Position numbers and translations under genes: made by a program
Notes under the pieces: model-generated
What the model was told of the DNA's origin: nothing
What the model saw: only the letters and a program-made list of their open reading frames with translations
The model's database searches: none
Shown: positions 29,265 through 63,933 of the stretch, piece by piece
Position numbering within the stretch: the stretch's first letter is position 1
How the letters are laid out: each line of letters begins with the position of its first letter
IMG/VR virus record: IMGVR_UViG_3300043464_002177
DNA: 64,000 nucleotides
DNA from: a virus
Lineage: Duplodnaviria; Heunggongvirae; Uroviricota; Caudoviricetes
Strand: one strand, 5' to 3'

Positions 29265-29277
29265 AATATATAAATAT

Positions 29278-29302: not shown

Positions 29303-29307
29303 TTATA

Positions 29308-39823: not shown

Positions 39824-40142
39824 CCTTTCTTTTTTTAAGTATTAATCTAAATGTACTCAAAAAACCTAAAAACATGAATAGTTGAACTGGCCAATACGGG
39901 AGATTTTGCAGTTCATGAAGCATCCAAAATATGTTCATATTAAGCCATGATAATAGAACAAGATTACTATCTCTTGATTCTTTCTCCCCAATAAAAATGT
40001 ATAATGCTAAAAGCAAAGTTGGTAAAACCATTACTGTAGCCATCCACGTCCATTTCAACGTCCAAAAAACGTCTTTAAGTAGCCACGAAATTACATGGAT
40101 CTCATGAGTATTCAAAATTTTTTTATGAGTTTCCTTCGACAT
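39804..40142 (-). CDS. hypothetical membrane protein
   Basis: Three hydrophobic helices. Confidence 0.4.
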   Translation of the reverse strand: MSKETHKKILNTHEIHVISWLLKDVFWTLKWTWMATVMVLPTLLLALYIFIGEKESRDSNLVLLSWLNMNIFWMLHELQNLPYWPVQLFMFLGFLSTFRLILKKRKDESNIS

Positions 40143-40548: not shown

Positions 40549-40625
40549 TAGTATAATTTTTACTATACATATATATCATCAAAATTGTATTTTTTTATGA
40601 TTTATTTAAAATAGATTTCCATCTA

Positions 40626-41306
40626 TTATTTGGTGAACTTTTTGAAGTTCTTTACGAATGGACGTTCGTATTTTTTAAGTTCCTTTACCTCTAAACCGTT
40701 GTATAAACCGGTAGACATAAAAGCTTGAATTTCATCATCAATGATCTTCTTATCATCAACATACCCCATCTTAATAAGCTTCTTTTTTAACTTATTGTAA
40801 TGTGTTGGTTTGATCTCAGCAATTAGTTTCTTAACCTCAGCATTATATTCTTTATTTGTATAATATAAACCATGTGCGATTTCATGATCGATAGTCTTAA
40901 GATCTTTACTGCTAGCACCAATTAGATACCATGGTTTATGAGTACCATCATTCTTTTGTTGCGCATCAGAACCACAATAGAAATAAATGTTATTCATTAT
41001 TTCATCATACTGTGTTTCCTTATAAAAAGCATCAACACCTTTCTCTAGTATATTAGATGGAATATTATAACCAGTCCAATCTTCTGGATATGTAAAGACA
41101 TCTTTCTTCCAGAACTTCTTATAATGTCTCATATACTCTACCCAAGAAAAATATTTTCCTCTGAATTTTTTAAATGGGGTTTCATAAAATTCTTGATAAC
41201 GACAGAACAACATAGCCCTATCATAATTGTCATCAACAATTACACAATAGATAGATGGTTTTATTTCTTTTACTTTACCTTTAACTAAAGGGTGATTTAT
41301 TTTCAT
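40626..41306 (-). CDS. hypothetical protein with HExxH motif
   Basis: IDHEIAHGLYY; no family recognised. Confidence 0.45.
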   Translation of the reverse strand: MKINHPLVKGKVKEIKPSIYCVIVDDNYDRAMLFCRYQEFYETPFKKFRGKYFSWVEYMRHYKKFWKKDVFTYPEDWTGYNIPSNILEKGVDAFYKETQYDEIMNNIYFYCGSDAQQKNDGTHKPWYLIGASSKDLKTIDHEIAHGLYYTNKEYNAEVKKLIAEIKPTHYNKLKKKLIKMGYVDDKKIIDDEIQAFMSTGLYNGLEVKELKKYERPFVKNFKKFTK

Positions 41307-41381
41307 ATTAAATGTTTAAGAATAATTGTTAACGATTAAACACCATGTTTTAATATAGTTAAAAAGTTGGAAATAAAAAAA

Positions 41382-41711
41382 TTAAAGTGCGAAACTTTCT
41401 CCACACCCGCAGGTCCTTGATGCGTTTGGATTTACCCATTGAAATCCTTTCCCGTTTAAACCACTAGAGTATTGTAGTTCAGTTCCGAATAAATAAAGAA
41501 CAGATTTTTTATCGATCACCACTTTAAGTTCTGGTAGTTCGATGATCTCATCCATTTCGGTAATGTCTGTATCAAAGTCCATAACATATGATAGCCCACT
41601 ACATCCACCACCCTTAACCCCTACACGCAAAAAATGGGTACCGTTGTCGATACCCTCTTCTTTCATAACGTCTTTAAGATGTGTTAATGCTGTCTCAGTA
41701 ATAGTAATCAT
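41382..41711 (-). CDS. iscA: A-type Fe-S cluster carrier (IscA/ErpA/HesB family)
   Basis: GGGCSGLSY and C-terminal TCGCGESF: the three conserved Cys at canonical spacing. Confidence 0.7.
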   Translation of the reverse strand: MITITETALTHLKDVMKEEGIDNGTHFLRVGVKGGGCSGLSYVMDFDTDITEMDEIIELPELKVVIDKKSVLYLFGTELQYSSGLNGKGFQWVNPNASRTCGCGESFAL

Positions 41712-42835: not shown

Positions 42836-43138
42836 TTACTCTGTTTGTGTAGTTAATATTAATTCAAATTCATCTGCTCCCGTTTTGTTTTTTTCTTTAA
42901 ACAACTCGAGAGTAATTTGATAACGACTTAGTTGAACTTCACTAACAAATAATTCTGATTGTAAACTATCTCTTTGATTGATCAACTCTTGTTTTTCTAT
43001 ATCTCCACCAAGAAAAAAATCTTGACCGTCTTTACATTTCTGTAGGTCATCTTTTTGTTGGAAATAAAACAATGACATGGTTATTAATCCAAGTAAAGAT
43101 ATTACTAAACCAGTTTTTAATTTTGTTTCTGTTTTCAT
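42836..43138 (-). CDS. hypothetical membrane-anchored coiled-coil protein
   Basis: ORF; N-terminal TM. Confidence 0.45.
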   Translation of the reverse strand: MKTETKLKTGLVISLLGLITMSLFYFQQKDDLQKCKDGQDFFLGGDIEKQELINQRDSLQSELFVSEVQLSRYQITLELFKEKNKTGADEFELILTTQTE

Positions 43139-43439
43139 TTCGATCTAAATTTTTAATATCCTTCAATATTTTTTCAACTTCTTTTTCAGATAAATGCCCA
43201 AGAACATCGTTAGTAATTGGTGTGTCATATGTTATTTCACCATTCTTACCAAACACCGCTATCTCATACAAACCATTTGAACCCCCATATGTATATGGGC
43301 CCCGAACAATACTAGCGCCGTAACCATTTGAAAACTGCACTATACATTGTTTCCCCATTCCCGTTGGGTGTTGTTGGAAGTTCAACTCTTTGAATTTTGT
43401 TGTGTTCAGATTGTTTGTTGGTCTTACTGTTTTGTTCAT
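43047..43439 (-). CDS. hypothetical protein
   Basis: ORF overlapping downstream gene. Confidence 0.4.
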   Translation of the reverse strand: MNKTVRPTNNLNTTKFKELNFQQHPTGMGKQCIVQFSNGYGASIVRGPYTYGGSNGLYEIAVFGKNGEITYDTPITNDVLGHLSEKEVEKILKDIKNLDRNENRNKIKNWFSNIFTWINNHVIVLFPTKR

Positions 43440-48587: not shown

Positions 48588-49601
48588 TTAATTACTTAAT
48601 GGTGCTTTAATCGCTGGATGTGATTGATAGTTTTCTAATATCACGTCCTGATCACCAAATGAAAATATACCATCTCTAATGTGTACAGTTGGTAACTCAA
48701 ATGGTTCTCTTTTTATTTGTTCTTTGGCTTGTTCAATATGATTTGAATAAAGATGTACATCACCTAAATTACCAATCAGTTCATCTGGTACCATACCCAT
48801 TTCATCAGCTAGCATTGTTAATAACAAACCATAAGACGCTATATTAAATGGTAAACCTAAAAATGTATCTACCGAACGTTGATTCCACATTAAAGAGATT
48901 GCTCGTTTAGGTACAGGATACAACTCATCAATTTCTTCATGATCAGCTCTGTGAAAATCAAATGGTTCAAATACTTTATATTTTTTAGATGCTAAATCCA
49001 GACGCTCTTCGACGCTTAACACTCTAGTATAAACTTGAAATCCGTAATGACAGGGTGGTAAAACCATTTGGTCTAACTCACCCACATTCCAAGCACTCAC
49101 CATTAATCGTCTACTATCTGGATTTGTTTTAAGTTCATCAATAAGGTTTTGAATTTGATCTATTGGTTCATATCCATTCCAAATATTCCATTCTCTCCAT
49201 TGTTTACCATAGATCGGCCCCAAATCACCGAAATCTTTTGCAAAATCATCATTTGTTTTAATTAACTCAATAAATTGCTCCTGAGTATATCTAGGACCGT
49301 GAAAGTCTTTAGTAAACAATTTTGTGTAATTCTTATATGCATCACCATCCCAAATATGACAATTATTATCTACAAGATATTTGATGTTAGTGCTACCACT
49401 TAGAAACCAAATCAACTCAGTTACCATTGTTTTCCAAGCCATCTTCTTTGTGGTTAACAAAGGGAAACCTTCTGACATTTTATGACGAATCTGTCTACCA
49501 AATACAGATATTGTACCAGTGCCGGTTCTATCTGATTTAGTTATTCCGTTGTCTAAAATGTCTTGTAATAATGCTTGATATTGTTTGTCTATATTATTCA
49601 T
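48588..49601 (-). CDS. thyA: thymidylate synthase (ThyA-type) with internal insertion
   Basis: Colinear ThyA motifs incl. FPLLTTKK, catalytic LPPCHYGFQ, DLGPIYGKQWR; ~50-aa insertion (RVLSVEERLDLASKKYKVFEPFDFHRADHEEIDELYPVPKRAISLMWNQ). Confidence 0.8.
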   Translation of the reverse strand: MNNIDKQYQALLQDILDNGITKSDRTGTGTISVFGRQIRHKMSEGFPLLTTKKMAWKTMVTELIWFLSGSTNIKYLVDNNCHIWDGDAYKNYTKLFTKDFHGPRYTQEQFIELIKTNDDFAKDFGDLGPIYGKQWREWNIWNGYEPIDQIQNLIDELKTNPDSRRLMVSAWNVGELDQMVLPPCHYGFQVYTRVLSVEERLDLASKKYKVFEPFDFHRADHEEIDELYPVPKRAISLMWNQRSVDTFLGLPFNIASYGLLLTMLADEMGMVPDELIGNLGDVHLYSNHIEQAKEQIKREPFELPTVHIRDGIFSFGDQDVILENYQSHPAIKAPLSN

Positions 49602-50978: not shown

Positions 50979-51335
50979 ATGCAACTAAGTGTTAATGGTC
51001 AAAAATTTCCGGTTGAATTAATGTCCTCGCCAGAAGATATCCAAAGAGGTATGCAAGGTAGACAGGATCTTGATGGTTGTATGGGGTTTAAATTAAAGAA
51101 AGGACACCACACTTTTTGGATGAAAGATTGTTTAATACCCTTGGATATTGTATTCGTTTTAAACGGAAGAATCAGTAAAATACACAGAGATTGTCAACCA
51201 TGCTCTGGTGAAGATTGTCAAAGATATCATGGACCAGCTGATCATGTTTTCGAATTCCCATCTGGTACCTGTGAAAGTTTTAAGGAAGGTGATCAAGCTA
51301 ATCTTTACTTAGGTACAAAATTTAATCCCGCGTAA
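50979..51335 (+). CDS. DUF192 (COG1430)-like protein
   Basis: PLDIVFV and paired Cys (CQPCSGEDC) as I recall for DUF192. Confidence 0.4.
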   Translation: MQLSVNGQKFPVELMSSPEDIQRGMQGRQDLDGCMGFKLKKGHHTFWMKDCLIPLDIVFVLNGRISKIHRDCQPCSGEDCQRYHGPADHVFEFPSGTCESFKEGDQANLYLGTKFNPA

Positions 51336-51414: not shown

Positions 51415-51585
51415 ATGGGATGCGGCTGCAAAAAAAAGAACAATGAAAATCCTCAACCTACTGAAGGACAGGTTACATCAACAGTTGTAACAGATAATCA
51501 AACAACACAACAACAACAAACACAAGAGCAAGTTGTACAGGTAGCTGTAGCTCTTCGTGAGATGATTGAAAATAAAGAACTTTAA
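51415..51585 (+). CDS. hypothetical 56-aa Q/T-rich micro-protein starting MGCGCKKK (not in track)
   Basis: ATG 51415 preceded by aataaactatttattttaaaagcaatact; followed by terminator 51591-51629. Confidence 0.4.
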   Translation: MGCGCKKKNNENPQPTEGQVTSTVVTDNQTTQQQQTQEQVVQVAVALREMIENKEL

Positions 51586-51590: not shown

Positions 51591-51629
51591 AACGGGCGTC
51601 TTTTAGGCGTCCGTTTATTTTCTTTATTT
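51591..51629 (+). terminator. Rho-independent terminator
   Basis: AACGGGCGTC-tttta-GGCGTCCGTT stem followed by TATTTTCTTTATTT. Confidence 0.55.
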
Positions 51630-51660: not shown

Positions 51661-51858
51661 ATGAAAAACAATACTAAATTGACGAGTGTCACTGTGGTGG
51701 ACGACGTTTACAAAAAATTCAAATTAAAAACTATAGATGGTTCTATCAACTTTCAAAAATTGGTTAACAGAGCAATGGATCTATATAATAAAGATGATCA
51801 TTTTCAAGAGAAAATAAATAATCATACTGGTTTATCTAACACCGGATCAAAGTTTTAA
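51661..51858 (+). CDS. hypothetical protein
   Basis: ORF. Confidence 0.45.
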   Translation: MKNNTKLTSVTVVDDVYKKFKLKTIDGSINFQKLVNRAMDLYNKDDHFQEKINNHTGLSNTGSKF

Positions 51859-51862
51859 ATTA

Positions 51863-53218
51863 ATGAAGAAAAAAATACTATTGTTATCTGATGATTTAAG
51901 AATGTCATCAGGTATTGCCACTATGTCGAAAGAGATTGTGATGGGCACCATACACAAGTATGATTGGGTACAACTTGGTGCTGCAATTAAACATCCAGAG
52001 TTCGGTAAAGTTGTTGATATAAACGATGATATCCGTAAAAGAACTGGTGTTAAAAATGCAAATTTAAAAATAATCCCATACAATGGTTATGGTGATATTG
52101 GTGTTTTAAGAAAATTAATAAAAGAAGAGAAGCCGGATGCTATTCTTCATTTTACTGATCCACATTATTGGCAGTGGTTGTATGATAATGAACATGAAGT
52201 TAGACAACAAGTTCCTTTATTGTATTATCATATATGGGATAATTTACCAGATCCATTATATAATAGAAACTATTATGAAAGTTGTGACTGGTTAGGTTGT
52301 ATATCTAAGCAAACATATGGTATCGTACATAGAGTTGGTAAATTACAAAATGGTTCCACATGGAAACCTTTAGAAGATTGGCAGATCAAATACGTTCCTC
52401 ATGGTATTAACCCAGAAACATTCAAACCATTGGATAAAGTTTCAGATGAAATAAAAAATATTATCTTTGGTGATAAGAAGTATGATTTTGTTTTATTTTT
52501 TAACAGTAGAAACATTAGAAGGAAACAACCAAGTGATGTTATCTATTCATTTAAATTGTTTTGTGATCAACTACCAAAAGAAAAAGCAGATAAGTGTCTA
52601 TTATTAATGCACACAGCCGCTGTTGATGAGAACGGAACAGACTTACCAGCAGTTATCGAAACTCTTTGTCCATATGATGTTAAGTTTACAGGATTAAAGT
52701 TAGAACAAGATAAGTTAAATGAAATATATAACCTAGTCGATTGTACTATCAACATCGCTAACAATGAAGGGTTTGGTTTAACAACGGCAGAATCATTGAT
52801 GGCTGGTACACCAATTATTGTTAATGTGACTGGTGGCTTACAAGATCAATGTGGATTTGAATATAGTGCAGATGATTATATTTCAGTTGGAACGTTACAT
52901 AATAAAAAAGTACACAGCTCAATATCACATGGCGAATGGGTAGAACCGATTTGGTCATCAGCTATAAATTTAAATGGATCTGTACCAACCCCATACATTT
53001 TTGATGACAGGGTAAACGATGATGATGTTGCAAATGTTATCATGAAGATGTATAAGATAGGTAAGAAAAAAAGAAAAGCAAAAGGATTAAAAGGTAGAGA
53101 GTTTATGTTAAACAATCTATCCAATAAAATAATGTGTGATAAAATGATTGAGGGTATTGAAGATGCTCTTAAGAATTGGGAACCTAAAAAAAGATTTGAT
53201 TTATATAAAATAGTATGA
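51863..53218 (+). CDS. GT-B fold glycosyltransferase (GT4/group-1 family)
   Basis: NNEGFGLTTAESLMAGTPIIVNVTGGLQDQ matches the E-x-F-G ... E-A-x-A-x-G-x-P-V-I signature. Confidence 0.55.
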   Translation: MKKKILLLSDDLRMSSGIATMSKEIVMGTIHKYDWVQLGAAIKHPEFGKVVDINDDIRKRTGVKNANLKIIPYNGYGDIGVLRKLIKEEKPDAILHFTDPHYWQWLYDNEHEVRQQVPLLYYHIWDNLPDPLYNRNYYESCDWLGCISKQTYGIVHRVGKLQNGSTWKPLEDWQIKYVPHGINPETFKPLDKVSDEIKNIIFGDKKYDFVLFFNSRNIRRKQPSDVIYSFKLFCDQLPKEKADKCLLLMHTAAVDENGTDLPAVIETLCPYDVKFTGLKLEQDKLNEIYNLVDCTINIANNEGFGLTTAESLMAGTPIIVNVTGGLQDQCGFEYSADDYISVGTLHNKKVHSSISHGEWVEPIWSSAINLNGSVPTPYIFDDRVNDDDVANVIMKMYKIGKKKRKAKGLKGREFMLNNLSNKIMCDKMIEGIEDALKNWEPKKRFDLYKIV

Positions 53219-54474
53219 GTAAACCGTTTTTATTATTTAGAGGGCCAGTACAAACTAGAAGTGGGTATGGCGCGCATTCAAGAGACCTTTTACAGGCTCT
53301 GTATGAAATGAACACATATGACATTAAGATTGACAGTTGTGGCTGGGGATCAACCCCAATGACTGCGCTAGAAAAAAATAATGTTTTTCATAAATGGATA
53401 GAATCAAATATCATATCATCACTAACAACACAGCCAGATGTTTATGTTCAAGTAACTGTACCAAATGAATTTCAAAGAGTTGGTAAGATTAACATAGGTA
53501 TCACTGCTGGAATTGAAACAACCGTCGCACCTAAATCTTGGGTTGATGGTTGTAACAAAATGGATATGATCATTGCGACATCACAATTTTCTAGTGAGGT
53601 TTTAATGAGTACAGTTTACAATGAGACCGATAATGTTACAGGAAAATTAATTAAACAACATAAGATTGAAAAACCAATAAAGGTTCTTTTTGAAGGTGTT
53701 CATCCTGATACATTCAACAATGAATATAGTGATATCGATTTAAATATTAATGAAGATTTTGCTTTCCTTTTTGTTGGTCATTGGTTAAAAGGTAATTTAG
53801 GTCAAGACAGAAAAGATGTGGGTATGTTAATCAAGTGTTTTGTTGAGGCATTTAAAAATGAGGAAAACAAACCGGCATTGATTCTTAAAACTTCATCAGC
53901 AACTTTCTCAATAAAGCAAAGAGAAGATCTATCTAAAAAAATAAAAGAATTGGTTGGTGACATTGAAACACCGCCACCAATTTACCTATTGTTTGGAGAA
54001 TTAACAGATAAAGAAATGAACAATCTTTACAACCATTCTAAAATTAAAGCAATGATTTCTTTAACAAAGGGTGAAGGATTCGGTAGACCACTATTAGAAT
54101 TCACAATGACTGGCAAACCGGTTATTGCATCTAATTGGTCTGGACATAAAGATTTCTTACCAATGGATAAGGGAATCATGATTGGCGGTAAATTAAACGA
54201 AGTTGATGAAAGTGCTATTGATGATTTCATTTTAAAAGGTTCAAAGTGGTTCACCGCAAATTACAATGAAGCTGCTGAAGTTATGAAGATCGTAAAGAAT
54301 GATTACCAGAAATTTTTAGATCGTGCAGAAAATCTAAGAATTGAAAATTCGACTAAGTTTAGTTTCCAGAGAATGGTAGAAGAGTTTGAAAAATTGTTAC
54401 CGAAAACAGTTCCACAAGAAGAGTTACCAAAACAAAAGCCAATTAACTTACCTAAATTAAATAAAATAAAATAA
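53215..54474 (+). CDS. GT-B fold glycosyltransferase (group-1-like)
   Basis: GEGFGRPLLEFTMTGKPVIASNWSGHKDFL. Confidence 0.5.
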   Translation: MSKPFLLFRGPVQTRSGYGAHSRDLLQALYEMNTYDIKIDSCGWGSTPMTALEKNNVFHKWIESNIISSLTTQPDVYVQVTVPNEFQRVGKINIGITAGIETTVAPKSWVDGCNKMDMIIATSQFSSEVLMSTVYNETDNVTGKLIKQHKIEKPIKVLFEGVHPDTFNNEYSDIDLNINEDFAFLFVGHWLKGNLGQDRKDVGMLIKCFVEAFKNEENKPALILKTSSATFSIKQREDLSKKIKELVGDIETPPPIYLLFGELTDKEMNNLYNHSKIKAMISLTKGEGFGRPLLEFTMTGKPVIASNWSGHKDFLPMDKGIMIGGKLNEVDESAIDDFILKGSKWFTANYNEAAEVMKIVKNDYQKFLDRAENLRIENSTKFSFQRMVEEFEKLLPKTVPQEELPKQKPINLPKLNKIK

Positions 54475-54483
54475 AATGCCTAT

Positions 54484-55107
54484 ATGAAAATTAGTTTTGC
54501 GATCACAGTATGTAATGAGTTTGAAGAAATCAAACAGTTAGTACCATTCTTAATCGAGAACAAAAGAGTAAACGATGAAATTGTTATTCTATTTGATAAT
54601 AAAAATGGAGATGAAAGAGTCTTAAATTATTTGTTAGAATTTAATAAACTACCAAATGTGCAGACTTGGCAAAGCATGGATTTTAATAATGATTTTTCGG
54701 AATGGAAAAATAAATTAAACGAATATTGTACAGGTGATTATATTTTTCAATTAGATGCTGACGAATTAATAAGTGAGTATATGGTTAAAAATCTACATGA
54801 GATAATCGAAGCTAACGATGAGATTGACTTATTTTATGTCCCAAGAATCAATACAGTAAAGGGAATTACTGAAGAACATATTAGAAGATGGAGATGGAAT
54901 GTAGACGCCGATGGTAGAGTAAACTTCCCAGATTACCAGGGTAGAATTTATAAATCTAAATTAAAATGGGGTGGTAAGGTACATGAAAGAATAGTAGGGG
55001 CTAAATTTTATTCTCTATTACCAACAGAAGATATGTACTCGTTATCACACCACAAAACAATTAGTAGACAAGAAAAACAAAATGATTATTATGAAAACAT
55101 TAAATGA
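54484..55107 (+). CDS. GT-A fold glycosyltransferase-like protein
   Basis: ISFAITVCNE ... FQLDADELI (DxD). Confidence 0.4.
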   Translation: MKISFAITVCNEFEEIKQLVPFLIENKRVNDEIVILFDNKNGDERVLNYLLEFNKLPNVQTWQSMDFNNDFSEWKNKLNEYCTGDYIFQLDADELISEYMVKNLHEIIEANDEIDLFYVPRINTVKGITEEHIRRWRWNVDADGRVNFPDYQGRIYKSKLKWGGKVHERIVGAKFYSLLPTEDMYSLSHHKTISRQEKQNDYYENIK

Positions 55108-55633
55108 AATTTATCAAAATTATCAATCACCTGATGGTCACGGTGATAAGGGCACAGCGCACACATACATAGATGAATATGAAAGATTATTAGAACCATA
55201 TAGAAAGAATTCAATTGTTCTTGAAATTGGTTTATGTGAAGGCGAATCTTTGAGAATGTGGGAAGAATATTTTATTGATTCAAAAGTGATTGGTGTCGAT
55301 ATCACTAGCAAATATTTAAGTGAATTAATTAAGGAGTGTACACATCACATTATTATTGCTGATGCAACTAGAGAGAGTATAATAAATAAAATTGATGAGA
55401 AAACATTTGATGTTTTAATTGATGATGGTAGTCATCGTCTAGTAGATCAACTAAAAACATTTTTTATTTTTAAAAATAAGATTAACCCTGGTGGGATTTA
55501 TATTATTGAAGATATTGAGGATTTGGATAATGTAAAAAATATCTTCTTAGCACTTCACAATAACGTAGAAATTATCGATAATAGACATATAAAAGGTAGA
55601 CACGATGATGTGTTAATAGTATATAAATTTTAA
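55082..55633 (+). CDS. class I SAM-dependent methyltransferase
   Basis: VLEIGLCEGES (motif I), VIGVDIT, VLIDDGSH. Confidence 0.5.
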   Translation: MIIMKTLNEIYQNYQSPDGHGDKGTAHTYIDEYERLLEPYRKNSIVLEIGLCEGESLRMWEEYFIDSKVIGVDITSKYLSELIKECTHHIIIADATRESIINKIDEKTFDVLIDDGSHRLVDQLKTFFIFKNKINPGGIYIIEDIEDLDNVKNIFLALHNNVEIIDNRHIKGRHDDVLIVYKF

Positions 55634-55636
55634 ACT

Positions 55637-56632
55637 ATGAAAGTATTAATTACAGGTATTGCGGGGCTGCTAGGTTCCAGATTAACAGATTACATCATTG
55701 AAAATCATCCGGATGTTCATATTGTTGGTATTGATGATTTAAGCGGTGGTTATTATGAAAACATTAATCATAAAGTTCCAGAATTTAGAAGATTAAATTT
55801 GGTAACAGGTGATTTGGAAAGTTGTTTTGAGGAACATAAATTTGATTATGTATACCACTTTGCAGCATATGCTGCTGAAGGTTTATCACCTTTCATTAGA
55901 AAATACAATTATGAAAATAATTTAATTTCAACAACCAGGATTATTAATCAATGCATCAAACACGATGTTAAAAGATTAGTTTTCACATCTACTATGGCAG
56001 TTTATGGGCATGGTTATGGTGATGTCTTTGATGAAGCTCAAATCCCTTCACCAATTGATCCATATGGTATTGCTAAATACGCTTGTGAAATGGATATTAA
56101 AGTTGCTGGTGAACAACACGGGCTTGATTGGTGCATCATTAGACCACACAATGTTTATGGGATTAAACAAAACATATGGGATAAATACCGTAACGTATTA
56201 GGTATTTGGATGTATCAACATATGAACGGTGAACCAATGACAATATTTGGAGATGGTGAACAAAAAAGAGCGTTCAGTTATATTGATGATTGTTTAGAGG
56301 GATTATGGAAAGCATCACAACTTCCTGAATGTTCTAAAGAGATTATTAATTTAGGTGGTACTAAACACTATACCATAAACGAAGCAAATAAGATTTTGCG
56401 TGAAGTTATTAATGGTGGAGAGACTATCCACAAAGAACAAAGACATGAAGTTAAAACAGCAGTACCCACTTGGGCTAAATCTGTTAGACTACTTGGTTAT
56501 GAAGATAAAACATCTTTACATGATGGTTTAAAATCAATGTGGGAGTGGGCTCAACAGCAACCAAAGAGAGATAGATTCATATGGGATTCATATGAACTAG
56601 ATAAAGGAATTTATAGTTTTTGGAAAAAATAA
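55637..56632 (+). CDS. NAD-dependent sugar epimerase/dehydratase (extended SDR)
   Basis: VLITGIAGLLGSRL Rossmann motif; YGIAKYACE (YxxxK). Confidence 0.7.
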   Translation: MKVLITGIAGLLGSRLTDYIIENHPDVHIVGIDDLSGGYYENINHKVPEFRRLNLVTGDLESCFEEHKFDYVYHFAAYAAEGLSPFIRKYNYENNLISTTRIINQCIKHDVKRLVFTSTMAVYGHGYGDVFDEAQIPSPIDPYGIAKYACEMDIKVAGEQHGLDWCIIRPHNVYGIKQNIWDKYRNVLGIWMYQHMNGEPMTIFGDGEQKRAFSYIDDCLEGLWKASQLPECSKEIINLGGTKHYTINEANKILREVINGGETIHKEQRHEVKTAVPTWAKSVRLLGYEDKTSLHDGLKSMWEWAQQQPKRDRFIWDSYELDKGIYSFWKK

Positions 56633-56636
56633 GAAT

Positions 56637-57218
56637 ATGAAAAAAATAGAATTTATTATCCCAACTTATAACAGACCAGATAAATTAATGGTAATGTTAT
56701 CATCAATAAAAGCTCAATCCGTTGACTTATGGAAAGTGCATGTTGTTGCTGATGCAGTATATGACGGGTATCAAGAAATAAAAGATTACTTTAAAGATGA
56801 CGAGAGATTTAAATTCTCTGAATTAAATGGTCCACATAAAGATTGGGGTCACACAGCAAGAAACTATGGATTAGAAAGAGCTGAAGAAGAATGGGTAGTA
56901 ATGTCTGGTGATGACAATTATTATGTTCCTGTTTTTGTTGCAGAATTTTTAGATGCGGTAAAATTCAGAAAAGACGCAAACTTCGTTCATTGTAATTTAG
57001 TACACAACTGGCTAAACAATGATTATATTGGTTTAATGTCTAGACCTCAACTTAACGGTATTGATATCGGTAACTTTATGACAAAGACAAAATTCGCAAA
57101 ACAAATGAGATTAGATGTTACTAAAGTAGATGCTGATGGGTTATTTGTAGAAGAATATATAGACAAATTTAAAGGAGGTATCATTCACATTCAAAAAATA
57201 TTATATGTCCACAACTAA
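56637..57218 (+). CDS. family-2 glycosyltransferase
   Basis: EFIIPTYNRPDKLMVMLSSI; SGDDNYY. Confidence 0.5.
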   Translation: MKKIEFIIPTYNRPDKLMVMLSSIKAQSVDLWKVHVVADAVYDGYQEIKDYFKDDERFKFSELNGPHKDWGHTARNYGLERAEEEWVVMSGDDNYYVPVFVAEFLDAVKFRKDANFVHCNLVHNWLNNDYIGLMSRPQLNGIDIGNFMTKTKFAKQMRLDVTKVDADGLFVEEYIDKFKGGIIHIQKILYVHN

Positions 57219-57648
57219 TATTGAGGGACACATACCAATACCTAGAAAAAATTATAATAAAAAACCAACATTACTAATAATAAGCGGAGAATCAATGGTT
57301 GGTAAAACTACATTGTGTTTTTTACTAAAGGAGGTTAAAAAATCTTATTATGTTAGTCTTGATCAATTAACATTAGATGTAAATTTACCAATAAAAAGTA
57401 TTAACGATTTGGTTAGTAAATTTGGTAATGATTTTTCTGCCCGTTCCATTTTTTATTTTTGTGAACACGTTTTCAGGAATAAAATAATTTTTATAGATTA
57501 TTGTTTTAATTTAATATTAAATAAAAAACAAGAACTTTTTATCTTTGATGGGGTTTATTTTACAAATGAAGAGTTTTTAAATGAGTTTATCAAAAAATTT
57601 GAAGATGCCTATCACATATGGATCGTCAATAGACCAACAAAAAAATAA
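57205..57648 (+). CDS. P-loop NTPase (kinase-like)
   Basis: Walker A GESMVGKTT. Confidence 0.45.
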   Translation: MSTTNIEGHIPIPRKNYNKKPTLLIISGESMVGKTTLCFLLKEVKKSYYVSLDQLTLDVNLPIKSINDLVSKFGNDFSARSIFYFCEHVFRNKIIFIDYCFNLILNKKQELFIFDGVYFTNEEFLNEFIKKFEDAYHIWIVNRPTKK

Positions 57649-57651
57649 TAT

Positions 57652-58764
57652 ATGAATATAACATTTGTTCTTGCAGTATTAAATAAATTAGATTTAACCA
57701 AAGATTGTTATTCTAGAATAAGGGATCTTTACCCAGAAGCACCATTCGTTATAAGTAGTGGTGGTTCAACTGATGGCACAAAAGAATGGTTGTTAGAAAT
57801 GTCTGATAAAGATGAATACTTAACAATTTTTCACGATGACGATAGATTAACATTTTCTGAAACATACAATTCAGGAATTAAGATGGTCGATACTGAAAAA
57901 TTAGTTTTGATTCACAATGATATGATCATAGGTGAAGGGTTTTTAGAGGCTATAGATAGACTATTAACCCCAAACATGTTATTATCATATACAACAATAG
58001 AACCACCCATTTTTAAGGGACATAGAAGACCAGGTAAAGTATTAATAGATCTGGGCTCATCGTTTGCTGATTTTGATTACTTTAACTTTAATGCATATGT
58101 TACTGCGAATAATAATAACGACATTTTATATGATGGTGCAGTTTTCTTTATGAGTGGATATAAGAAGATGTTTGAAGAAGTCGGGTTTTTTGATGGGTTT
58201 AGTTTCGTTCCTTGTTTCTGTGAAGATGATGATTTTATTATTAGAGCTAAATTAAAAGGTTATGAATTAAAAACTTGTGAGTCTGCAATTGTTTATCATT
58301 TTGTTTCACAAACGTCTAGATTTAGTGATGAGTTTAAAAAAGACAGAATAATTCATGAAGTAGCATCTACTAGAAATTTCGTAAGAAAATGGGGGGTAAC
58401 AATATCGGTGTTTAACGAATTGCGTTATTGGGAAGAGAAAAATTTTAAGTACAATACATTTTCAATGGGCTTACTTACAAGAAACAAAAAGAGATTAATG
58501 GAGGTAGAACCATTTTTCGACAAAATAGATCTAGGGGAAATACCTGAAGATTATATTAACAATGAACAAAAGAGAACCAGATATGATATTAGAACTAAAT
58601 TTACATTAACAGATACTGTAGATGTACTTATCACTGAGGTTAGTGAATTTACGGATGAAGATATTAATACATTAAAACGATTAAGATTATCAATACCTTA
58701 CTATGAACCTGGTGAATATCATATAGGTAATATGTTAATACAAATAAAAAAGGAGCTTAATTAG
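57652..58764 (+). CDS. family-2 glycosyltransferase
   Basis: FVLAVLNKLDLT ... SSGGSTDGT; CEDDDF. Confidence 0.5.
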   Translation: MNITFVLAVLNKLDLTKDCYSRIRDLYPEAPFVISSGGSTDGTKEWLLEMSDKDEYLTIFHDDDRLTFSETYNSGIKMVDTEKLVLIHNDMIIGEGFLEAIDRLLTPNMLLSYTTIEPPIFKGHRRPGKVLIDLGSSFADFDYFNFNAYVTANNNNDILYDGAVFFMSGYKKMFEEVGFFDGFSFVPCFCEDDDFIIRAKLKGYELKTCESAIVYHFVSQTSRFSDEFKKDRIIHEVASTRNFVRKWGVTISVFNELRYWEEKNFKYNTFSMGLLTRNKKRLMEVEPFFDKIDLGEIPEDYINNEQKRTRYDIRTKFTLTDTVDVLITEVSEFTDEDINTLKRLRLSIPYYEPGEYHIGNMLIQIKKELN

Positions 58765-59236
58765 CTCCTTCTTTTTTTACTTCCTTTTTAATCAGTTTAA
58801 ATAACACCAGGTATTTGTCTTTTGTTTTCCCCGCGTCTTTTAAATCTTCTTTAGTAATTTCTGGATATTCAATTTCAATCTCTTGATTTAAAAGTGTACC
58901 ATATTCTTTATCGAATTCAACATATTTTGGGTTAACAACTTTCCCAGTTACATTACCCTCTTCGTCTTTTAATTCGTTGTACATTTTAACCATGACACTA
59001 CCATTAGGATCTTCTTCACCATGTTTTTTAATCAAATCATCTCTTAATGCTTCAACTTTACTTCTCTCACTTTTAAGTGTTGTTGAGAAATCGCTTAGTT
59101 CATATTTTAAAATGATTGATAGATTTTGCTTTGAAAATCCTTCATAAATCTGTTCACCAGACTGTGGGTCAATATAACCATTTATTTCACTTTCTAATTG
59201 TAGAACGTCACCTAGTTTTAATGTAATTTTGTCCAT
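58757..59236 (-). CDS. hypothetical protein
   Basis: ORF. Confidence 0.5.
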   Translation of the reverse strand: MDKITLKLGDVLQLESEINGYIDPQSGEQIYEGFSKQNLSIILKYELSDFSTTLKSERSKVEALRDDLIKKHGEEDPNGSVMVKMYNELKDEEGNVTGKVVNPKYVEFDKEYGTLLNQEIEIEYPEITKEDLKDAGKTKDKYLVLFKLIKKEVKKEGAN

Positions 59237-59287
59237 AAATTTAAATTATCTTTTATAATATATATGTTATTTTTAGAAAAGTAAACA

Positions 59288-60295
59288 CTAAATTATTGTC
59301 AAAAGTGCATAAGTTATCATAATTGAGATCCACACAATTAACGCTTTTAAATAGGTCATAAATCCGGTATGGAAATACCTTTGACCAATAGGTAAACACT
59401 TATGTGACGGTGAGATCAAATATGCTGAGTATTCTAATGTGAAGAACAGAACAAAATACTGCATACCAAACACACTTGTTAATAAGCTAACGATACTAGC
59501 ATACTTTGCTGACGACCCTAACATAAATGATGATAGGAAAGATATAACAGAAACCACTAGAATATATTCTGGTTTACTATATTGTTTGATATATGATTCT
59601 ATCACACCATAGTAAGAACCAACAAGGTTACCTAGAATGATCACTAATGCAACGATCCATATCAATTCCCAGTCAATATAACCCATTAGTTTATACCAAC
59701 TTTTAGAATAATATACTAACCATAGTGTAAACCCTGTAAAGAAACCAAAATAATATTCAGTAAGAAATACACACATTAGTATAGTAACCAAGAACGGTAT
59801 AACCACCATAGTAATGTTTTGCATATTAATTGGTTCGTCTTTAACTTCAATATCAATCTCATCATCATTTAATGATAAAATATAATATGTTACATATAAT
59901 ACAGATATTAAAAGCAACGGCCAGATATATGACATGAATTGCATATAAGTTAAACTCAACACAGCCATTGGAATAATAACAGTCTTCTCTAATGGTGACC
60001 ATAGATAATAGTGGTGTGTTGCTAGGTAATCAATGATACCAAACTTCTTACGTTTCTTATTATCAACAGGTGCAATACTGTTTAACATTGATGCCGATAA
60101 TGCAACACGCCCAGGGATAGGTAAGATACCACCAAATAGTGACACTAGGAATACCACCATTTTTTTAGACTTAACTTTTTGTTCAAGTAGTCTGAAAATG
60201 TCCATAAGGTATCCTCTTTCTTTGAGAATACCTGTTACGAACATAATGAATATTAAATAGACAAGGAACTCTTGTCCTTTGATTAGAATTGACAT
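59288..60295 (-). CDS. polytopic membrane protein (possible polysaccharide polymerase/ligase-type)
   Basis: About 9-10 hydrophobic helices; function inferred only from adjacency to glycosyltransferase cluster. Confidence 0.3.
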   Translation of the reverse strand: MSILIKGQEFLVYLIFIMFVTGILKERGYLMDIFRLLEQKVKSKKMVVFLVSLFGGILPIPGRVALSASMLNSIAPVDNKKRKKFGIIDYLATHHYYLWSPLEKTVIIPMAVLSLTYMQFMSYIWPLLLISVLYVTYYILSLNDDEIDIEVKDEPINMQNITMVVIPFLVTILMCVFLTEYYFGFFTGFTLWLVYYSKSWYKLMGYIDWELIWIVALVIILGNLVGSYYGVIESYIKQYSKPEYILVVSVISFLSSFMLGSSAKYASIVSLLTSVFGMQYFVLFFTLEYSAYLISPSHKCLPIGQRYFHTGFMTYLKALIVWISIMITYALLTII

Positions 60296-60297: not shown

Positions 60298-62073
60298 TTA
60301 AAAATTATATTTAAGGTTTAAATTAATACTTCTTGTTGGTAAATCAACTGACGATCCCCAAACTCTACTAGCATCATTGAATAAGTTATAAAACAACATA
60401 GTGTATTCTAAATTTTTATACTTTGTGGTGTATCCAATGTTCACCAATCTCACACCTTTATTGTGTAAAAATTGTCGAACATCATTTCTATCTGCAAATG
60501 ATAAAGATTGATCAATTGGTTGATATCTACCTTCCACCCATAGCTTATTATAATTTAGTTTGATGTAGCCAAAATATGGTACTGTTTTATCAACTGGTTC
60601 TGTTGTGGTTCCTGTTAATCTTTTAACACCATAAACATATTCTGCTCTAGCATTCACACCTAATTTAGTTCCAAACAAACTATCATTAAAATAACCTAAC
60701 GTTGCACCGTTTACCGAAACGCCACCAATGTTATCTGTCCTAAAGACGTTTGTCGATAGTACGGTTACATTAAATGCTTCATCTAATTCTTTAAAGTAAA
60801 CGTCTAAATATAAATTACTTCTTTTATAACCAAATCGATATGTTTGACCTCTCTCTTGTATTAAATCCGGGTTTGGTAATTGTGTACCTCTACCATTTGT
60901 CATTGCTTGTTTAATCATCAAATAACTTGGTGCGTTTAAGCTATTGTCATAACTTGCAAATAGACCTTTGTATCCAACAATTGCTGAATATTCAAAACCA
61001 TTAAATGGATCAATATCAGTTATTTGAACATTCTTTAATCCTAAGCTTGTATAAACTTTTACTTTACCAATTTCATTAATCCAACGAATACCATGCTTTG
61101 TTGTTTTGTAATCATCGTTTGATACCCCGCCAACTAAACCATTTTCATATCTGATTTTTTCGATTGTGTTTGTTGAATATATACTAAATGAATGTGGTAA
61201 TTGATATTCAAGATTTGCGGTATATGCGTCTAGGCGACTAGCAACTTTTTTTGTCCCATCTAAAATATCTTCTGCACTGTTTTGATACGCAAGGTTCACA
61301 CGTAGTCTGTTTAAATTCATCTCATGATTAACAAACAAATATCTTTGTAGTTCCCATGTATAAACCGCCGGTCTTTGATAACCAGAGCTTCTGAAGCCAC
61401 CATTCCATCTATCTGTTCTTTCTAAATCATTTGATTGTGAAAAAATTAAAGTTGTTTTTTGTGTTGAAGACCAGTTCGCTTCAGACACCAATGCTTTTTG
61501 ATTGTAAGCACTGTGTTGAAATGTACTATCAGGAGATATCACATTACCATAGTCAATGTTGTTAAACCCAATACCAAATTTCTTACCCTTATAAGATGCT
61601 GATTGGCTAAATCCATCCGTACCACCCACATAATTTAATCCAACATGTGATGATTGAACACCAACCTTTCTTTCGATTGTTCCACCAATATTACCACCAT
61701 CTGTAATAGAAATTAACTTTGTGAATTCTAGTGGAACCCATCCAAAATATTGGTTTGGTCCGGTTCTAAACAAACCGTTATTAACCCTAATACCATTAAT
61801 TGATTGGTCAACTTGATTACCAGTAAACGCCCCAACATATGGACTTAGTTGTCCTGGACTTGTTTCCTGAATTCGTGCAGAGTTCAAGTATACTTTCGGG
61901 TTTTTTATTACTTGTTGCACCTGATAGTTGGTGCCCCCAACAACAACAACTTCTTTCAATTCTATTGAAGCTGTGTCTTTTTGAATTGTACCGCTACTTT
62001 GTTGTCCAAATGACATAGTAGTAGTAAACAATAGTGCTAACATTAGCGATAGCATTGTGATTGTTTTTCTCAT
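60298..62073 (-). CDS. TonB-dependent-receptor-like outer-membrane beta-barrel protein
   Basis: Start at MRKTITMLSLMLALLFTTTMSFGQQ (signal peptide); plug-like region (VVVVGGTNY ... DGGNIGGTIER); alternating beta-strand pattern; C-terminal ...LKYNF aromatic terminus. Confidence 0.45.
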   Translation of the reverse strand: MRKTITMLSLMLALLFTTTMSFGQQSSGTIQKDTASIELKEVVVVGGTNYQVQQVIKNPKVYLNSARIQETSPGQLSPYVGAFTGNQVDQSINGIRVNNGLFRTGPNQYFGWVPLEFTKLISITDGGNIGGTIERKVGVQSSHVGLNYVGGTDGFSQSASYKGKKFGIGFNNIDYGNVISPDSTFQHSAYNQKALVSEANWSSTQKTTLIFSQSNDLERTDRWNGGFRSSGYQRPAVYTWELQRYLFVNHEMNLNRLRVNLAYQNSAEDILDGTKKVASRLDAYTANLEYQLPHSFSIYSTNTIEKIRYENGLVGGVSNDDYKTTKHGIRWINEIGKVKVYTSLGLKNVQITDIDPFNGFEYSAIVGYKGLFASYDNSLNAPSYLMIKQAMTNGRGTQLPNPDLIQERGQTYRFGYKRSNLYLDVYFKELDEAFNVTVLSTNVFRTDNIGGVSVNGATLGYFNDSLFGTKLGVNARAEYVYGVKRLTGTTTEPVDKTVPYFGYIKLNYNKLWVEGRYQPIDQSLSFADRNDVRQFLHNKGVRLVNIGYTTKYKNLEYTMLFYNLFNDASRVWGSSVDLPTRSINLNLKYNF

Positions 62074-62106
62074 TTTGTTTTTGTTTAAGAAAAATTTATA
62101 AAATTG

Positions 62107-62196
62107 CGGGGAGGAAGAGATTCGGACTCTCGATTGAATGTTAAGTCCAATAGCAGCTTCGGAGGCTGTCGGTTTAAACCACTCACCCACCTCCCC
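62107..62196 (-). tRNA. tRNA-like cloverleaf, 90 nt (anticodon-loop CUCCGAA suggests anticodon CCG; long variable arm)
   Basis: On - strand: 7-bp acceptor stem GGGGAGG/CCUCCCC; U8; D-arm with A14, GG, A21; anticodon stem CAGC/GCUG with loop C-U-CCG-A-A; 21-nt variable arm with 5-bp stem; T-arm GAGAG-UCCGAAU-CUCUU (G53, C56, A58, C61 conserved; C at 55); discriminator G; no encoded CCA. Confidence 0.35.
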
Positions 62197-62240
62197 TTGC
62201 AATCATATTATAATATAAACAAAAAATATCAGATATACAA

Positions 62241-62939
62241 CTATCTTTCAATTAAAAATATTCCAAGACCATTCCAAAAGTCAGTGCTATCCTCACCAGA
62301 TGTGAAGATTTCTCTATAATGACTAATAAATAAATTATTATCATTTATAAACTTATCAAAAGCACCACCGTTCCAATTCCAATCGTCCATGATAAGAATA
62401 GTTTGATTAGAAAATATGGGTAACATATTAGTTAATGCCACGTATTGATCATGAAATTTTGTTTCACCATCATAAAAAATAATGTCAACATTTGGTAAGG
62501 TACTAAAATCAAATGTTTGATAATCTGTTTTATATACTGAAGTTTTATTAACATTACCATGTTTTTTAACATTCAATAAAAATTCCTCCTGTGGTATTGT
62601 TTCAATATTATGTTTATAGTAGTTACCTATTTTTTGACTAACACCCTTTGGTGTTAAGTTAGGTGACATGAAGTTGTCAATACCTATTGCGTTAATATTA
62701 TTACTATATATTGCAGAACAAAAAGTGGCCCCTCTAAACACACCAACCTCTAGGTACGTTGTGCCATCAATGTTACAAATATTATTAAGAAAGGCTCTGA
62801 CTTTATTGCTGGTGATTCCATGTATATCTAAAATTTCTTGTGTTAATTTAGATACTTCAAGTTTACCCCATTCAATAGATTCATCTATATGTTTAACTAA
62901 GTCCATATGATTTCTTTTTGTGGTTAGCAACGACGTCAC
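62241..62939 (-). CDS. class I SAM-dependent methyltransferase-like protein
   Basis: YLEVGVFRGATF glycine-rich motif; IMDDWNW. Confidence 0.4.
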   Translation of the reverse strand: MTSLLTTKRNHMDLVKHIDESIEWGKLEVSKLTQEILDIHGITSNKVRAFLNNICNIDGTTYLEVGVFRGATFCSAIYSNNINAIGIDNFMSPNLTPKGVSQKIGNYYKHNIETIPQEEFLLNVKKHGNVNKTSVYKTDYQTFDFSTLPNVDIIFYDGETKFHDQYVALTNMLPIFSNQTILIMDDWNWNGGAFDKFINDNNLFISHYREIFTSGEDSTDFWNGLGIFLIER

Positions 62940-63933
62940 AATAGTTACAATCCCAGCACTGAAATTTACATTTCTTTATTTTATTTCTCCATCCTTTTAA
63001 CTCCTCGTGTGGAATACCGTCAAGATATATGTGTGATGTTTCAGATAGTATTTCTTTACCCTGTACATATGAATCAACAATTTCCATGGTTTCTTTTAAT
63101 CGATTGAAACTATCTCTACCATGCATTTTAAAAACATCAATGTATTCTAAAAATTCATCAAACTCTTCTTTAAATGGTGGTATTGTTCCTGTCTTGAAAA
63201 AGAAAGCATTAATATCTTTTTCCCATTTATGTTCACAAGTTACTTTGGAGATCTCGTGATGAAAGTATGGTAATTCGTTGTTTGTTCTTAAGTTATTATA
63301 TGTGTAATGTTCATCCATCACTGGGCATCTACCTAAACAACCTTCATTAACTAGTAATGATATTTTAACATATCTACCTTTATCTTCTTGATATTTTAAT
63401 TGTGCTCTCTTAATGTTTTTTAACTCTTCAACATCTCTCATTAAAATTCTATCAAGGTTAATGTAATCAAACCCCTGATCCGCATTATACCAAAAGTCTT
63501 GTCCTGTTGCAACCTTTCTTAATATAGTATTTTTAATTTCCATCTCAGGAAAATGTTTCTTAAGCCCCATTGCAACCCAATGACCGTGTGGAATAGTAAT
63601 GCACCTCAAACCCTTTTCATATAAGGGTTTCAGATTATCAACAAACAATTTATAGTTCTGATAATTTGGTGAGATGTTAACATTATTAAATGTTGCACTT
63701 ATTTTTATACCTAACGCCTTTTGTATAATCATTGCGTTTTCAAACACAACATCCCTATCCTCTTCTCTGAACACAGCACCCATAGCGTCTTGTGTGAATG
63801 GTGGTGTTCTACATGTAAAATAAATGTCATAGATCCATTCTTTATTTCTTTCTAAGAATGGATAGAATTCATTCATGAACATATCCTCCGTTAACATTGG
63901 ATTAAACGGTATTGAAAATATTTTCTTTATCAT
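62893..63933 (-). CDS. hypothetical Cys-rich protein (346 aa)
   Basis: ORF; C-terminal CKFQCWDCNYCD cluster and CLGRCP. Confidence 0.45.
   Translation of the reverse strand: MIKKIFSIPFNPMLTEDMFMNEFYPFLERNKEWIYDIYFTCRTPPFTQDAMGAVFREEDRDVVFENAMIIQKALGIKISATFNNVNISPNYQNYKLFVDNLKPLYEKGLRCITIPHGHWVAMGLKKHFPEMEIKNTILRKVATGQDFWYNADQGFDYINLDRILMRDVEELKNIKRAQLKYQEDKGRYVKISLLVNEGCLGRCPVMDEHYTYNNLRTNNELPYFHHEISKVTCEHKWEKDINAFFFKTGTIPPFKEEFDEFLEYIDVFKMHGRDSFNRLKETMEIVDSYVQGKEILSETSHIYLDGIPHEELKGWRNKIKKCKFQCWDCNYCDVVANHKKKSYGLS

Follow-up and report, generated by a model that had tools for sequence, protein, structure and literature searches.

A stretch of tailed-phage DNA of 64,000 nucleotides (nt), IMG/VR virus record IMGVR_UViG_3300043464_002177 (the window), carries a compact locus for glycan assembly in which four glycosyltransferases (GTs), here called GTB1, GTB2, GT2a and GT2c, form a conserved frame around an exchangeable cassette. 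By analogy with bacterial loci, the layout can be called O-antigen- or capsule-like, with a conserved frame and a swappable centre. As to the acceptor of the glycan, we tentatively favour cytoplasmic glycosylation of phage-encoded, most plausibly virion, proteins, to which we give a probability of about 0.4.

A conserved frame around an exchangeable cassette

Eight open reading frames (ORFs) on the plus strand, from 51863 to 58764, are co-directional and tightly packed, with overlaps or gaps of no more than 10 nt. All of them were found where the initial annotation of this DNA had placed them. They are listed with their length in amino acids (aa) and with the number of loci carrying the gene, out of the 83 collected at that stage; counts out of 80, used below, refer to the syntenic IMG/VR loci that were kept.

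51863-53218, +, GTB1: 451 aa; GT-B fold, GT4-type (retaining) glycosyltransferase; core gene; 83 of 83 loci
53215-54474, +, GTB2: 419 aa; second GT-B/GT4 glycosyltransferase, paralogue of GTB1; core gene; 82 of 83 loci
54484-55107, +, GT2a: 207 aa; minimal GT-A/GT2 glycosyltransferase; core gene; 79 of 83 loci and, in addition, 23 distant loci
55082-55633, +, class I S-adenosylmethionine (SAM) methyltransferase: 183 aa; cassette gene; 15 of 83 loci
55637-56632, +, NAD-dependent, nucleoside diphosphate (NDP)-hexose 4-epimerase-like SDR: 331 aa; common cassette gene; 58 of 83 loci
56637-57218, +, GT2b: 193 aa; GT-A/GT2 glycosyltransferase; cassette gene; 29 of 83 loci
57205-57648, +, small P-loop NTPase: 147 aa; rare cassette gene; 1 of 83 loci, plus near-identical contigs from the independently assembled metagenomes
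57652-58764, +, GT2c: 370 aa; GT-A/GT2 glycosyltransferase; core gene closing the cassette; 61 of 83 loci, always at the 3' end

Fifty-five loci spanned the whole cluster, and among them we found 31 gene orders with 4 to 13 genes each. In all 55, GTB1-GTB2 came first and GT2c last, and the minimal form of the cluster was GTB1-GTB2-GT2a-GT2c. The cassette of the window consists of the methyltransferase, the GalE-like 4-epimerase, GT2b and the P-loop protein. The cassettes of its relatives contained UDP-galactopyranose mutase (GLF; E 4e-74), a DegT aminotransferase (E 7e-77), a hexapeptide acetyltransferase, KAS III-like and SDR proteins, a PhyH dioxygenase, extra GT-A-like transferases and many methyltransferases, some of which matched the TylF or RMNT_CmcI (rhamnosyl-O-methyltransferase) families. 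Cassettes differed even in close relatives whose GTB1 proteins were ~90% identical. Among the 700 + 357 cassette ORFs (~90 clusters) there was no protein with two or more convincing transmembrane (TM) segments, and no flippase, polymerase, ABC permease/transporter, ligase or initiating phosphoglycosyl transferase was found among these ~1,050 ORFs. The exact eight-gene arrangement of the window was assembled independently in at least six metagenomes. Since the same gene order thus arose in independent assemblies, and that of the core is repeated in 80 viral contigs, chance does not account for the arrangement.

The frame extends to distant, largely marine lineages with 33-67% identity (L089-L104 among them), in which clamp-loader, DUF1599, nuclease and SLOG genes form a conserved block ahead of the GT cluster. 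The order there is clamp-loader subunits, a Zn-ribbon protein, DUF1599 (nucleotide modification associated domain 1, NMAD1), a PD-(D/E)XK nuclease, a YspA-type SLOG protein, a 60-65-aa protein and GTB1, followed by GTB2, a 150-aa Zn-ribbon protein, GT2a and variable sugar genes. The clamp-loader, DUF1599, PD-(D/E)XK, SLOG and 150-aa Zn-ribbon genes of these lineages were all missing from the window. The GTB pair clustered together in 35 of 37 diverse loci.

Identity of the encoded enzymes

With Pfam gathering cut-offs of 26.4 bits for Glycos_transf_1, 23.3 for Glycos_transf_2, 27 for Methyltransf_31 and 24 for DUF401, both GT-B proteins scored above the cut-off for Glycos_transf_1 (GTB1, 30.7 bits; GTB2, 35.1 bits). 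The EX7E motif was present at E302..E310 of GTB1, where it is invariant in the family alignment, and at E287..E295 of GTB2. An AlphaFold2 (AF2) model of GTB1 (predicted template-modelling score [pTM], 0.80; mean predicted local distance difference test [pLDDT], 72.9) had the two-Rossmann GT-B fold, and its top Foldseek matches were the retaining GT4 enzymes MshA, PimB', BshA and OtsA and the chlorovirus protein B736L (E 1e-13 to 1e-9). B736L of chlorovirus NY-2A was also the closest PDB sequence match. As a clue to the acceptor the structure search was discarded, since it returned only generic retaining GT4 neighbours, which are common also to DNA-acting phage GT-Bs.

The three GT2 proteins matched Glycos_transf_2 with 36.6 bits (GT2a; E 5.6e-9), 52.1 bits (GT2b; E 9e-14) and 27.8 bits (GT2c). 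Their acidic motifs were DAD at residue 91 of GT2a, GDD at residues 91-93 of GT2b and DDD at residues 62 and 192 of GT2c, which also carries a C-terminal extension of ~140 aa. The methyltransferase matched Methyltransf_31 (31.4 bits), Methyltransf_24 and a PHROG methyltransferase family (E 2e-21). The epimerase matched Pfam Epimerase (E 2e-43), has GxxGxxG at residue 7 and YxxxK at residue 143, and was closest in the PDB to the UDP-glucose 4-epimerase 4zrm (E 1.4e-47). The P-loop protein has the Walker A motif GESMVGKT and gave weak AAA_14 and guanylate-kinase matches. In the NCBIfam scan no match came near any curated cut-off, and similarities to SunS and PglI were generic; the top match of GT2a was the SunS peptide S-glycosyltransferase family, with 25 bits against a cut-off of 350. 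None of the eight operon proteins has a TM segment, which makes them soluble, and their isoelectric points were 5.0-6.9, except for the P-loop protein (8.9).

These identities support the multi-enzyme glycan-assembly and methylation locus that the initial annotation had proposed. Its inventory, which summed to nine functions for eight genes, needs one correction: the two GT-Bs, the epimerase, the SAM methyltransferase and the P-loop protein stand, and of the four GT-A enzymes that it listed Pfam recognized three, a fourth not being found. The P-loop protein had been called kinase-like; the Walker A motif agrees with the first part of that description, and kinase function was not established by the weak matches.

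Transcription unit and neighbouring genes

The following features surround the eight genes.

48588-49601, -, thymidylate synthase (ThyA): 337 aa; canonical; ~2 kb from the operon
50979-51335, +, DUF192 protein: 118 aa; Pfam DUF192, E 1.3e-16
51415-51585, +, 56-aa protein: MGCGCKK N-terminus, T/Q/S/P/N-rich linker, short C-terminal helix; between the DUF192 gene and the operon
51591-51615, +, terminator-like hairpin: 11-pair stem, then a T-run; parts the 56-aa gene from the GT operon
51661-51858, +, 65-aa protein: first operon gene; conserved; 4 nt ahead of GTB1
58746-58774, both strands, bidirectional terminator-like hairpin: 12- and 8-pair stems, T-runs on both strands
58757-59236, -, 159-aa acidic protein: convergent; frequent neighbour
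59288-60295, -, 10-TM DUF401/CitMHS-like transporter: 335 aa; convergent

Because hairpins lie at 51591-51615 and 58746-58774 and the 65-aa gene abuts GTB1, the operon most likely extends from 51661 to 58764, that is, from the 65-aa gene to the bidirectional terminator. The range of 51863-60295 given earlier for the locus merged two convergent units. A scan for sigma-70 promoters returned sites no more numerous than in shuffled sequence.

The 65-aa gene lies directly upstream of GTB1 in 82 loci and has homologues in at least 16 distant lineages, including gene 88 of Flavobacterium phage vB_FspM_immuto (immuto); its linkage to GTB1 is as tight as that of GTB2. The protein had no match in Pfam or the PDB, and its AF2 model (pLDDT 65.9) consisted of three helices and had no Foldseek match. 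A ribbon-helix-helix regulator was considered and rejected: the PDB profile search gave noise only, hhalign against CopG gave a probability of 0.1, and the model was of low confidence and all-helical.

Further upstream, the 56-aa gene has its own strong terminator (51591-51615). The motif M[G/A/S]CGCKK was found in 73 of the 80 close loci and in L086, and the peptide, wherever located, lies ~300-450 nt upstream of GTB1. Codons for its invariant Cys and Gly residues show synonymous changes, and its hypervariable linker consists of S/T/P/Q/N residues to 61%. The only Pfam match was a weak one, to DUF7196 (E 0.023), and the protein was absent from the distant lineages. In composition it looks like a mucin-type acceptor. 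The DUF192 gene, which precedes GTB1 in 77 of 83 loci, is probably a separate transcription unit.

On the opposite strand, the 335-aa protein has ~10 hydrophobic segments and matched DUF401 (40.6 bits, E 2.7e-10), TIGR00529 (E 2.5e-14) and CitMHS; no O-antigen polymerase or ligase match was present in the Pfam/NCBIfam output. Its gene is carried by 20 of 83 loci and by none of the distant lineages. The suggestion that it might be a polymerase or ligase thus gave way to these matches, by which the 10-TM protein is classified as a DUF401/CitMHS-type transporter; by its distribution it is not a conserved part of the locus. The 159-aa protein, present in 43 of 83 loci, had no Pfam or NCBIfam match.

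Occurrence in phage genomes

A scan of IMG/VR with GTB1 gave 457 matching stretches, from which the 80 syntenic loci were kept; they were 67-91% identical, lay on contigs of up to 335 kb and were syntenic with the window on both flanks. Common to them were NlpC/P60, ThyA and small genes on the left and the 159-aa gene, DUF401, a methyltransferase and a phrog_1458 protein on the right. The guanine-plus-cytosine (GC) content was flat across the locus. With the locus as query, megablast found nothing among GenBank phages; with tblastn, GTB1 matched immuto (47%), Microcystis phage Mel-JY01 (49%), Rhodothermus phage RM378 (27%) and a 484-kb uncultured phage. In immuto and Mel-JY01 the order GT-B, GT-B, GT2 is that of the window, and the cluster lies in the middle of the genome of a T4-like myovirus.

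GTB1 was also used to scan 185,579 prokaryotic species, with one genome per species. All 32 loci found were in metagenome-assembled genomes (MAGs) whose taxonomic assignments contradict one another (Flavobacteriaceae, Pelagibacter, Woesearchaeota, Saccharibacteria and others), and they look like mis-binned phage contigs; in isolate genomes of this set the family was not found. The family is very widespread, with 277 representatives at 50% identity with E<=1e-30 and >8,000 database members, and, judged by these searches, it appears to be confined to phages. Indeed, the GT-B pair with the 65-aa gene was seen only on viral or virus-like contigs, and the cultured carriers span three host phyla.

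The locus therefore lies inside a phage genome and not in a host flank, and the phage context assumed in the initial annotation was borne out by syntenic flanks, uniform GC content and clusters inside three cultured phage genomes. The opposite view, that the segment is host chromosome flanking a prophage, found no support, the ThyA, epimerase and GT genes being only generally bacterial in type, and can practically be dismissed: viral contigs of 100-335 kb carry the same genes on both sides, there is no GC break, isolate genomes do not match, and homologous clusters are internal to cultured myovirus genomes of the lytic type. No sign of a temperate lifestyle was seen within the window.

Acceptor of the glycan

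Three roles had been suggested for the locus: conversion of host O-antigen or capsule, glycosylation of virion proteins and glycosylation of phage DNA. None of them is proven; the membrane proteins of a GtrABC or Wzx/Wzy system are absent, and the known priming enzymes of DNA glycosylation are absent from the window. Our best guess ranks phage or virion proteins first, the host envelope second and DNA third, the last two being live rivals of the first.

If phage proteins are the acceptor, host-derived NDP-sugars would be used, one of them after conversion to its 4-epimer by the epimerase, and a short oligosaccharide of about five residues would be built stepwise. The conserved transferases would lay the inner part on a conserved acceptor, and to this the cassette enzymes would attach an outer part that is methyl-capped and differs between strains. 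Capsid, tail or fibre proteins would be glycosylated in this way in the cytoplasm before assembly, which would give the particle a variable glycan coat. Two points suggest to us a phage-encoded acceptor: the cluster is never accompanied by export or initiation machinery, and the inner transferases stay conserved although the hosts are unrelated. A virion target would fit the soluble enzymes, the missing export machinery, the conserved inner and diversifying outer part, and the methyl caps. In chloroviruses and mimiviruses, virion glycans are made by virus-encoded enzymes in the cytoplasm. Virion glycosylation is also known in mycobacteriophages, according to a summary in PMC12619734.

Several observations weigh against phage proteins as the acceptor, which we purely infer. 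GT4 and GT2 enzymes that act on undecaprenyl diphosphate (Und-PP)-linked intermediates are soluble or peripheral as well, so that host glycolipid acceptors are compatible with the lack of TM segments. Likewise, DNA-acting phage GT-Bs also resemble MshA and BshA (Pyle et al.), and the fold does not discriminate. The neighbours are genes of replication and nucleotide metabolism (clamp loader, DUF1599/NMAD1, PD-(D/E)XK, SLOG and ThyA), not structural genes, a placement that resembles DNA-modification modules and is unlike that of mycobacteriophage GT genes. Linkage to structural genes was not found: the window neighbours are ThyA and NlpC/P60, and the structural genes of immuto are >20 kb away from its cluster.

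Possible, though doubtful, is a remodelling of the host envelope, in which the soluble transferases would act at the inner membrane on undecaprenyl- or other lipid-linked intermediates of the host and leave initiation, flipping and ligation to host enzymes. An altered lipopolysaccharide (LPS), O-antigen, capsule or general O-glycan of Bacteroidota might then lead to superinfection exclusion or keep progeny from being trapped on debris. In gene content, and in having conserved flanks around a variable centre, the cluster does resemble O-antigen or capsule loci, and LPS-like clusters of large cyanomyoviruses are usually read as having an envelope target (PMC12801897). Moreover, an extra GT2 gene of the window adjoins that of an FG-GAP protein which starts with a lipoprotein-like signal. 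On the other hand, no initiating phosphoglycosyl transferase, Wzx, Wzy, ABC transporter or WaaL was present in ~90 clusters, and the 10-TM neighbour, which most loci lack, is a DUF401 transporter. Conservation of the inner transferases extends over cultured phages of Bacteroidota, Cyanobacteria and Rhodothermota and over marine contigs binned into MAGs of many other groups, and lipid-linked intermediates differ between those hosts. The failure to find the GTB1 family in isolate bacterial genomes and a temperate lifestyle in the window also speaks against the envelope.

Less probable again, and unlikely on balance, is hypermodification of DNA, in which the transferases would glycosylate phage DNA after replication as a protection against restriction, as do the alpha- and beta-GTs of T4, the MT+5mYOX+GT systems (MT, methyltransferase) and the arabinosyl-5hoC systems of RB69/DLP3. 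Across diverse lineages the cluster adjoins replication and nucleotide genes, including DUF1599, PD-(D/E)XK nuclease and SLOG genes, and 66 of 83 loci, as well as LR756508, have a thymidylate synthase (TS) gene no more than ~2 kb away. DNA glycosylation clusters with several GTs and sugar-nucleotide genes are known (PMC13326640; Pyle et al.), and DNA-acting GT-Bs have the same structural neighbours as GTB1 (Pyle et al.). The hydroxyl-bearing base that such GTs need can come from a TS homologue with N177D and L143D/E (the hm/ho-dCMP synthases; PMC13326640) or from a C5-methyltransferase with a TET-type dioxygenase (Pyle et al.). However, the TS of the window, that of immuto (its only TS) and those of three other lineages keep L143, C146 and N177. 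In Pfam scans of the window, C5-methyltransferase, TET/JBP and DpdA were unmatched; no DNA_methylase, TET_JBP or DpdA match appeared among the scanned ORFs of at least 100 aa in the 64 kb, a set that comprised all but those at 35521-38628, 37310-37732, 42836-43138 and 43047-43439. The transferases are acidic to neutral, not basic. T4 beta-GT was not among the top 50 Foldseek matches in the PDB, and entries named DNA alpha-GT ranked low in BFVD (ranks 20 and 37, TM-score ~0.42). The cassettes, with Galf, amino, acetyl, acyl and O-methyl functions and up to 13 genes, are more elaborate than the mono- to trisaccharide DNA glycans of which PMC13326640 and Pyle et al. give an account. The palindrome statistics point both ways: overall avoidance was weak, which favours modified DNA, and CATG, the only 4-bp palindrome clearly under-represented in the window (observed-to-expected ratio 0.61, z -6), counts against it.

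The neighbouring ThyA as a dCMP/dUMP hydroxymethylase or 5hoC synthase was rejected: it scored 276 bits against the TS of Staphylococcus aureus and keeps L143, C146 and N177. The protein has an insertion of ~40 aa (residues ~193-235) just after the strand with the catalytic Cys, and its orthologue in immuto, with 423 aa, has a larger one. It is improbable that the operon puts strain-variable, methyl-capped oligosaccharides on phage DNA by way of a 7-deazaguanine derivative or another handle, a route for which neither a hydroxymethyl- or hydroxy-pyrimidine synthase nor a TET enzyme would be needed. If this were true, an abundant group of aquatic phages would have the most elaborate DNA glycans known.

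Still more improbable is a dedicated small phage protein as the acceptor, either the mucin-like 56-aa MGCGCKK protein or another small product, by analogy with glycocin clusters. In 73 of 80 close loci the gene of the 56-aa protein, which has its own terminator, holds a fixed position directly before the operon, and its product combines the invariant Cys-Gly-Cys N-terminus with a variable S/T/P/Q/N-rich linker. The SunS match of GT2a might point the same way; yet at 25 bits against the cut-off of 350 it is generic GT2 similarity. Genes for peptide maturation or export are not present. Since the peptide is confined to one lineage and the four-transferase core is far broader, the 56-aa protein is not the general acceptor of the core.

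Other features of the window

At 17179-19157 on the minus strand, a further GT2 (240 aa) adjoins a 408-aa FG-GAP-repeat protein with a lipoprotein-like signal (LLLFSC), and a second protein with a similar signal is encoded at 25553-26734; the products of both regions may be surface-directed during infection. A block of plus-strand genes at 6000-13000 has a GC content of 0.40-0.43, compared with ~0.30-0.33 elsewhere in the window, and encodes GP88-family and DUF4241/DUF3846 proteins.

To the right of the operon, a tRNA-Arg(CCG) gene (62106-62196, minus strand) falls inside the listed ORF 60298-62202. The real start of this ORF is probably at ~62073 (metagenome calls give 591 aa), which would place the tRNA gene just upstream. 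At 62241-63933 (minus strand), and at 18478-19122 in the relative L120, a Methyltransf_24 protein and a phrog_1458/36869 protein (E ~1e-90 for the latter) form a conserved co-directional group, which is joined just beyond the right end of the window by a radical SAM protein. This group may be another modification module.

Three further regions lie on the minus strand. At 28023-29724, an ArdC-N-like anti-restriction protein (413 aa) adjoins a protein with the C-terminal helix-turn-helix of DnaA, and the pair may serve in counter-defence. The 1035-aa protein encoded at 35521-38628 has an M23-type metallopeptidase region and PHROG endolysin and tape-measure-like matches at residues ~170-300; it may be a virion-associated lysin or a tape-measure-like protein, and nothing else in the window hints at a structural gene. 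A run of genes of the auxiliary metabolic type at 38866-41711 encodes a 4HBT thioesterase, an HAD_SAK_2 protein, an AdoMet-decarboxylase-like protein and an IscA-like Fe-S assembly protein.

Comparison with known systems

Annotations of large aquatic phages frequently include GT-rich islands, and explanations of them are very rare. The features of the present one that seem to be new are the phage-specific frame of four transferases with its O-antigen-like cassette and the linked small genes. The clusters as such are not novel to phages of Bacteroidota: the initial annotation knew of no characterized glycan cluster of this size in Bacteroidetes phages, and a homologous cluster of 13 genes is annotated in the cultured Flavobacterium phage immuto; four GT orthogroups already figure as core in moraphages (PMC12619734). 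The swappable cassette implies diversifying selection on a phage-made glycan. If the virion is the target, abundant environmental myoviruses would join actinobacteriophages and giant viruses as carriers of virion glycosylation, and phage 'serotypes' would be suggested.

Among the systems compared, the seroconversion modules (gtrABC) have membrane-bound GtrA and GtrC, which are not matched here. O-antigen and capsule loci and the LPS-like islands of the cyanomyoviruses P-SSM2, S-SCSM1 and S-SCSM2R share the conserved flanks and variable centre and combine GT4 and GT2 enzymes with epimerase, aminotransferase, acetyltransferase, Glf and O-methyltransferase. Unlike these, the present cluster has no initiating transferase, flippase, polymerase, ABC transporter or ligase, and its core family is apparently phage-restricted. 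DNA hypermodification clusters (T4, MT+5mYOX+GT and RB69/DLP3) have in common with it several transferases with NDP-sugar enzymes, an early nucleotide-metabolism neighbourhood and a nearby gene of the TS family, but here the TS is canonical, an MT/TET pair was not found in the window, a conserved dNMP kinase is missing, and the cassettes are far more elaborate. The virion glycosylation systems of the mycobacteriophage capsid and tail tube, the chlorovirus capsid and the mimivirus fibril use soluble viral GT4 and GT2 enzymes with sugar-nucleotide and methyl-transfer enzymes, as here; they act in the cytoplasm without export machinery, and their gene content varies by clade. The differences are that the present cluster lies in a replication and nucleotide region and not beside structural genes, and that the hosts and virus lineages are unrelated.

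A broader relative may be the moraphages, described by Perez-Hernandez et al. in 2025 (PMC12619734) as phages of 200-307 kb, mostly from freshwater and with predicted Bacteroidota hosts. In the part of that description available, a Rhodothermus phage is a relative in the tree of major capsid proteins, the core orthogroups include four GT orthogroups, and several possible roles are listed for the transferases with none chosen; a cassette architecture is not mentioned there. The four-GT core, the freshwater source and the relationship to RM378 are consistent with the window, a match by description and not by sequence, and membership of the window phage among the moraphages is a lead only.

The closest clusters are those of immuto (genes 88-101), Mel-JY01 and RM378 (p013, p014 and p016), whose GT core is homologous to that of the window; a literature search on glycosylation in Immutovirus, Mel-JY01 and RM378 returned nothing functional. 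RM378 has the core only. In immuto the cassette is larger and of other content and includes two WecE-type aminotransferases, a mannosyltransferase and a 'pilin glycosylation protein', a 152-aa Zn-ribbon gene lies between GTB2 and GT2a, and a PD-(D/E)XK nuclease gene lies upstream in place of the DUF192 and MGCGCKK genes of the window. GTB1, GTB2 and GT2a of immuto are nevertheless orthologous to those of the window, with 47%, 45% and 51% identity and in the same order, and the small upstream gene (immuto_88), the epimerase and the terminal GT2 are also present. With immuto, Mel-JY01 and RM378 as cultured carriers, the target of glycosylation, be it virion, DNA or host surface, is directly testable.

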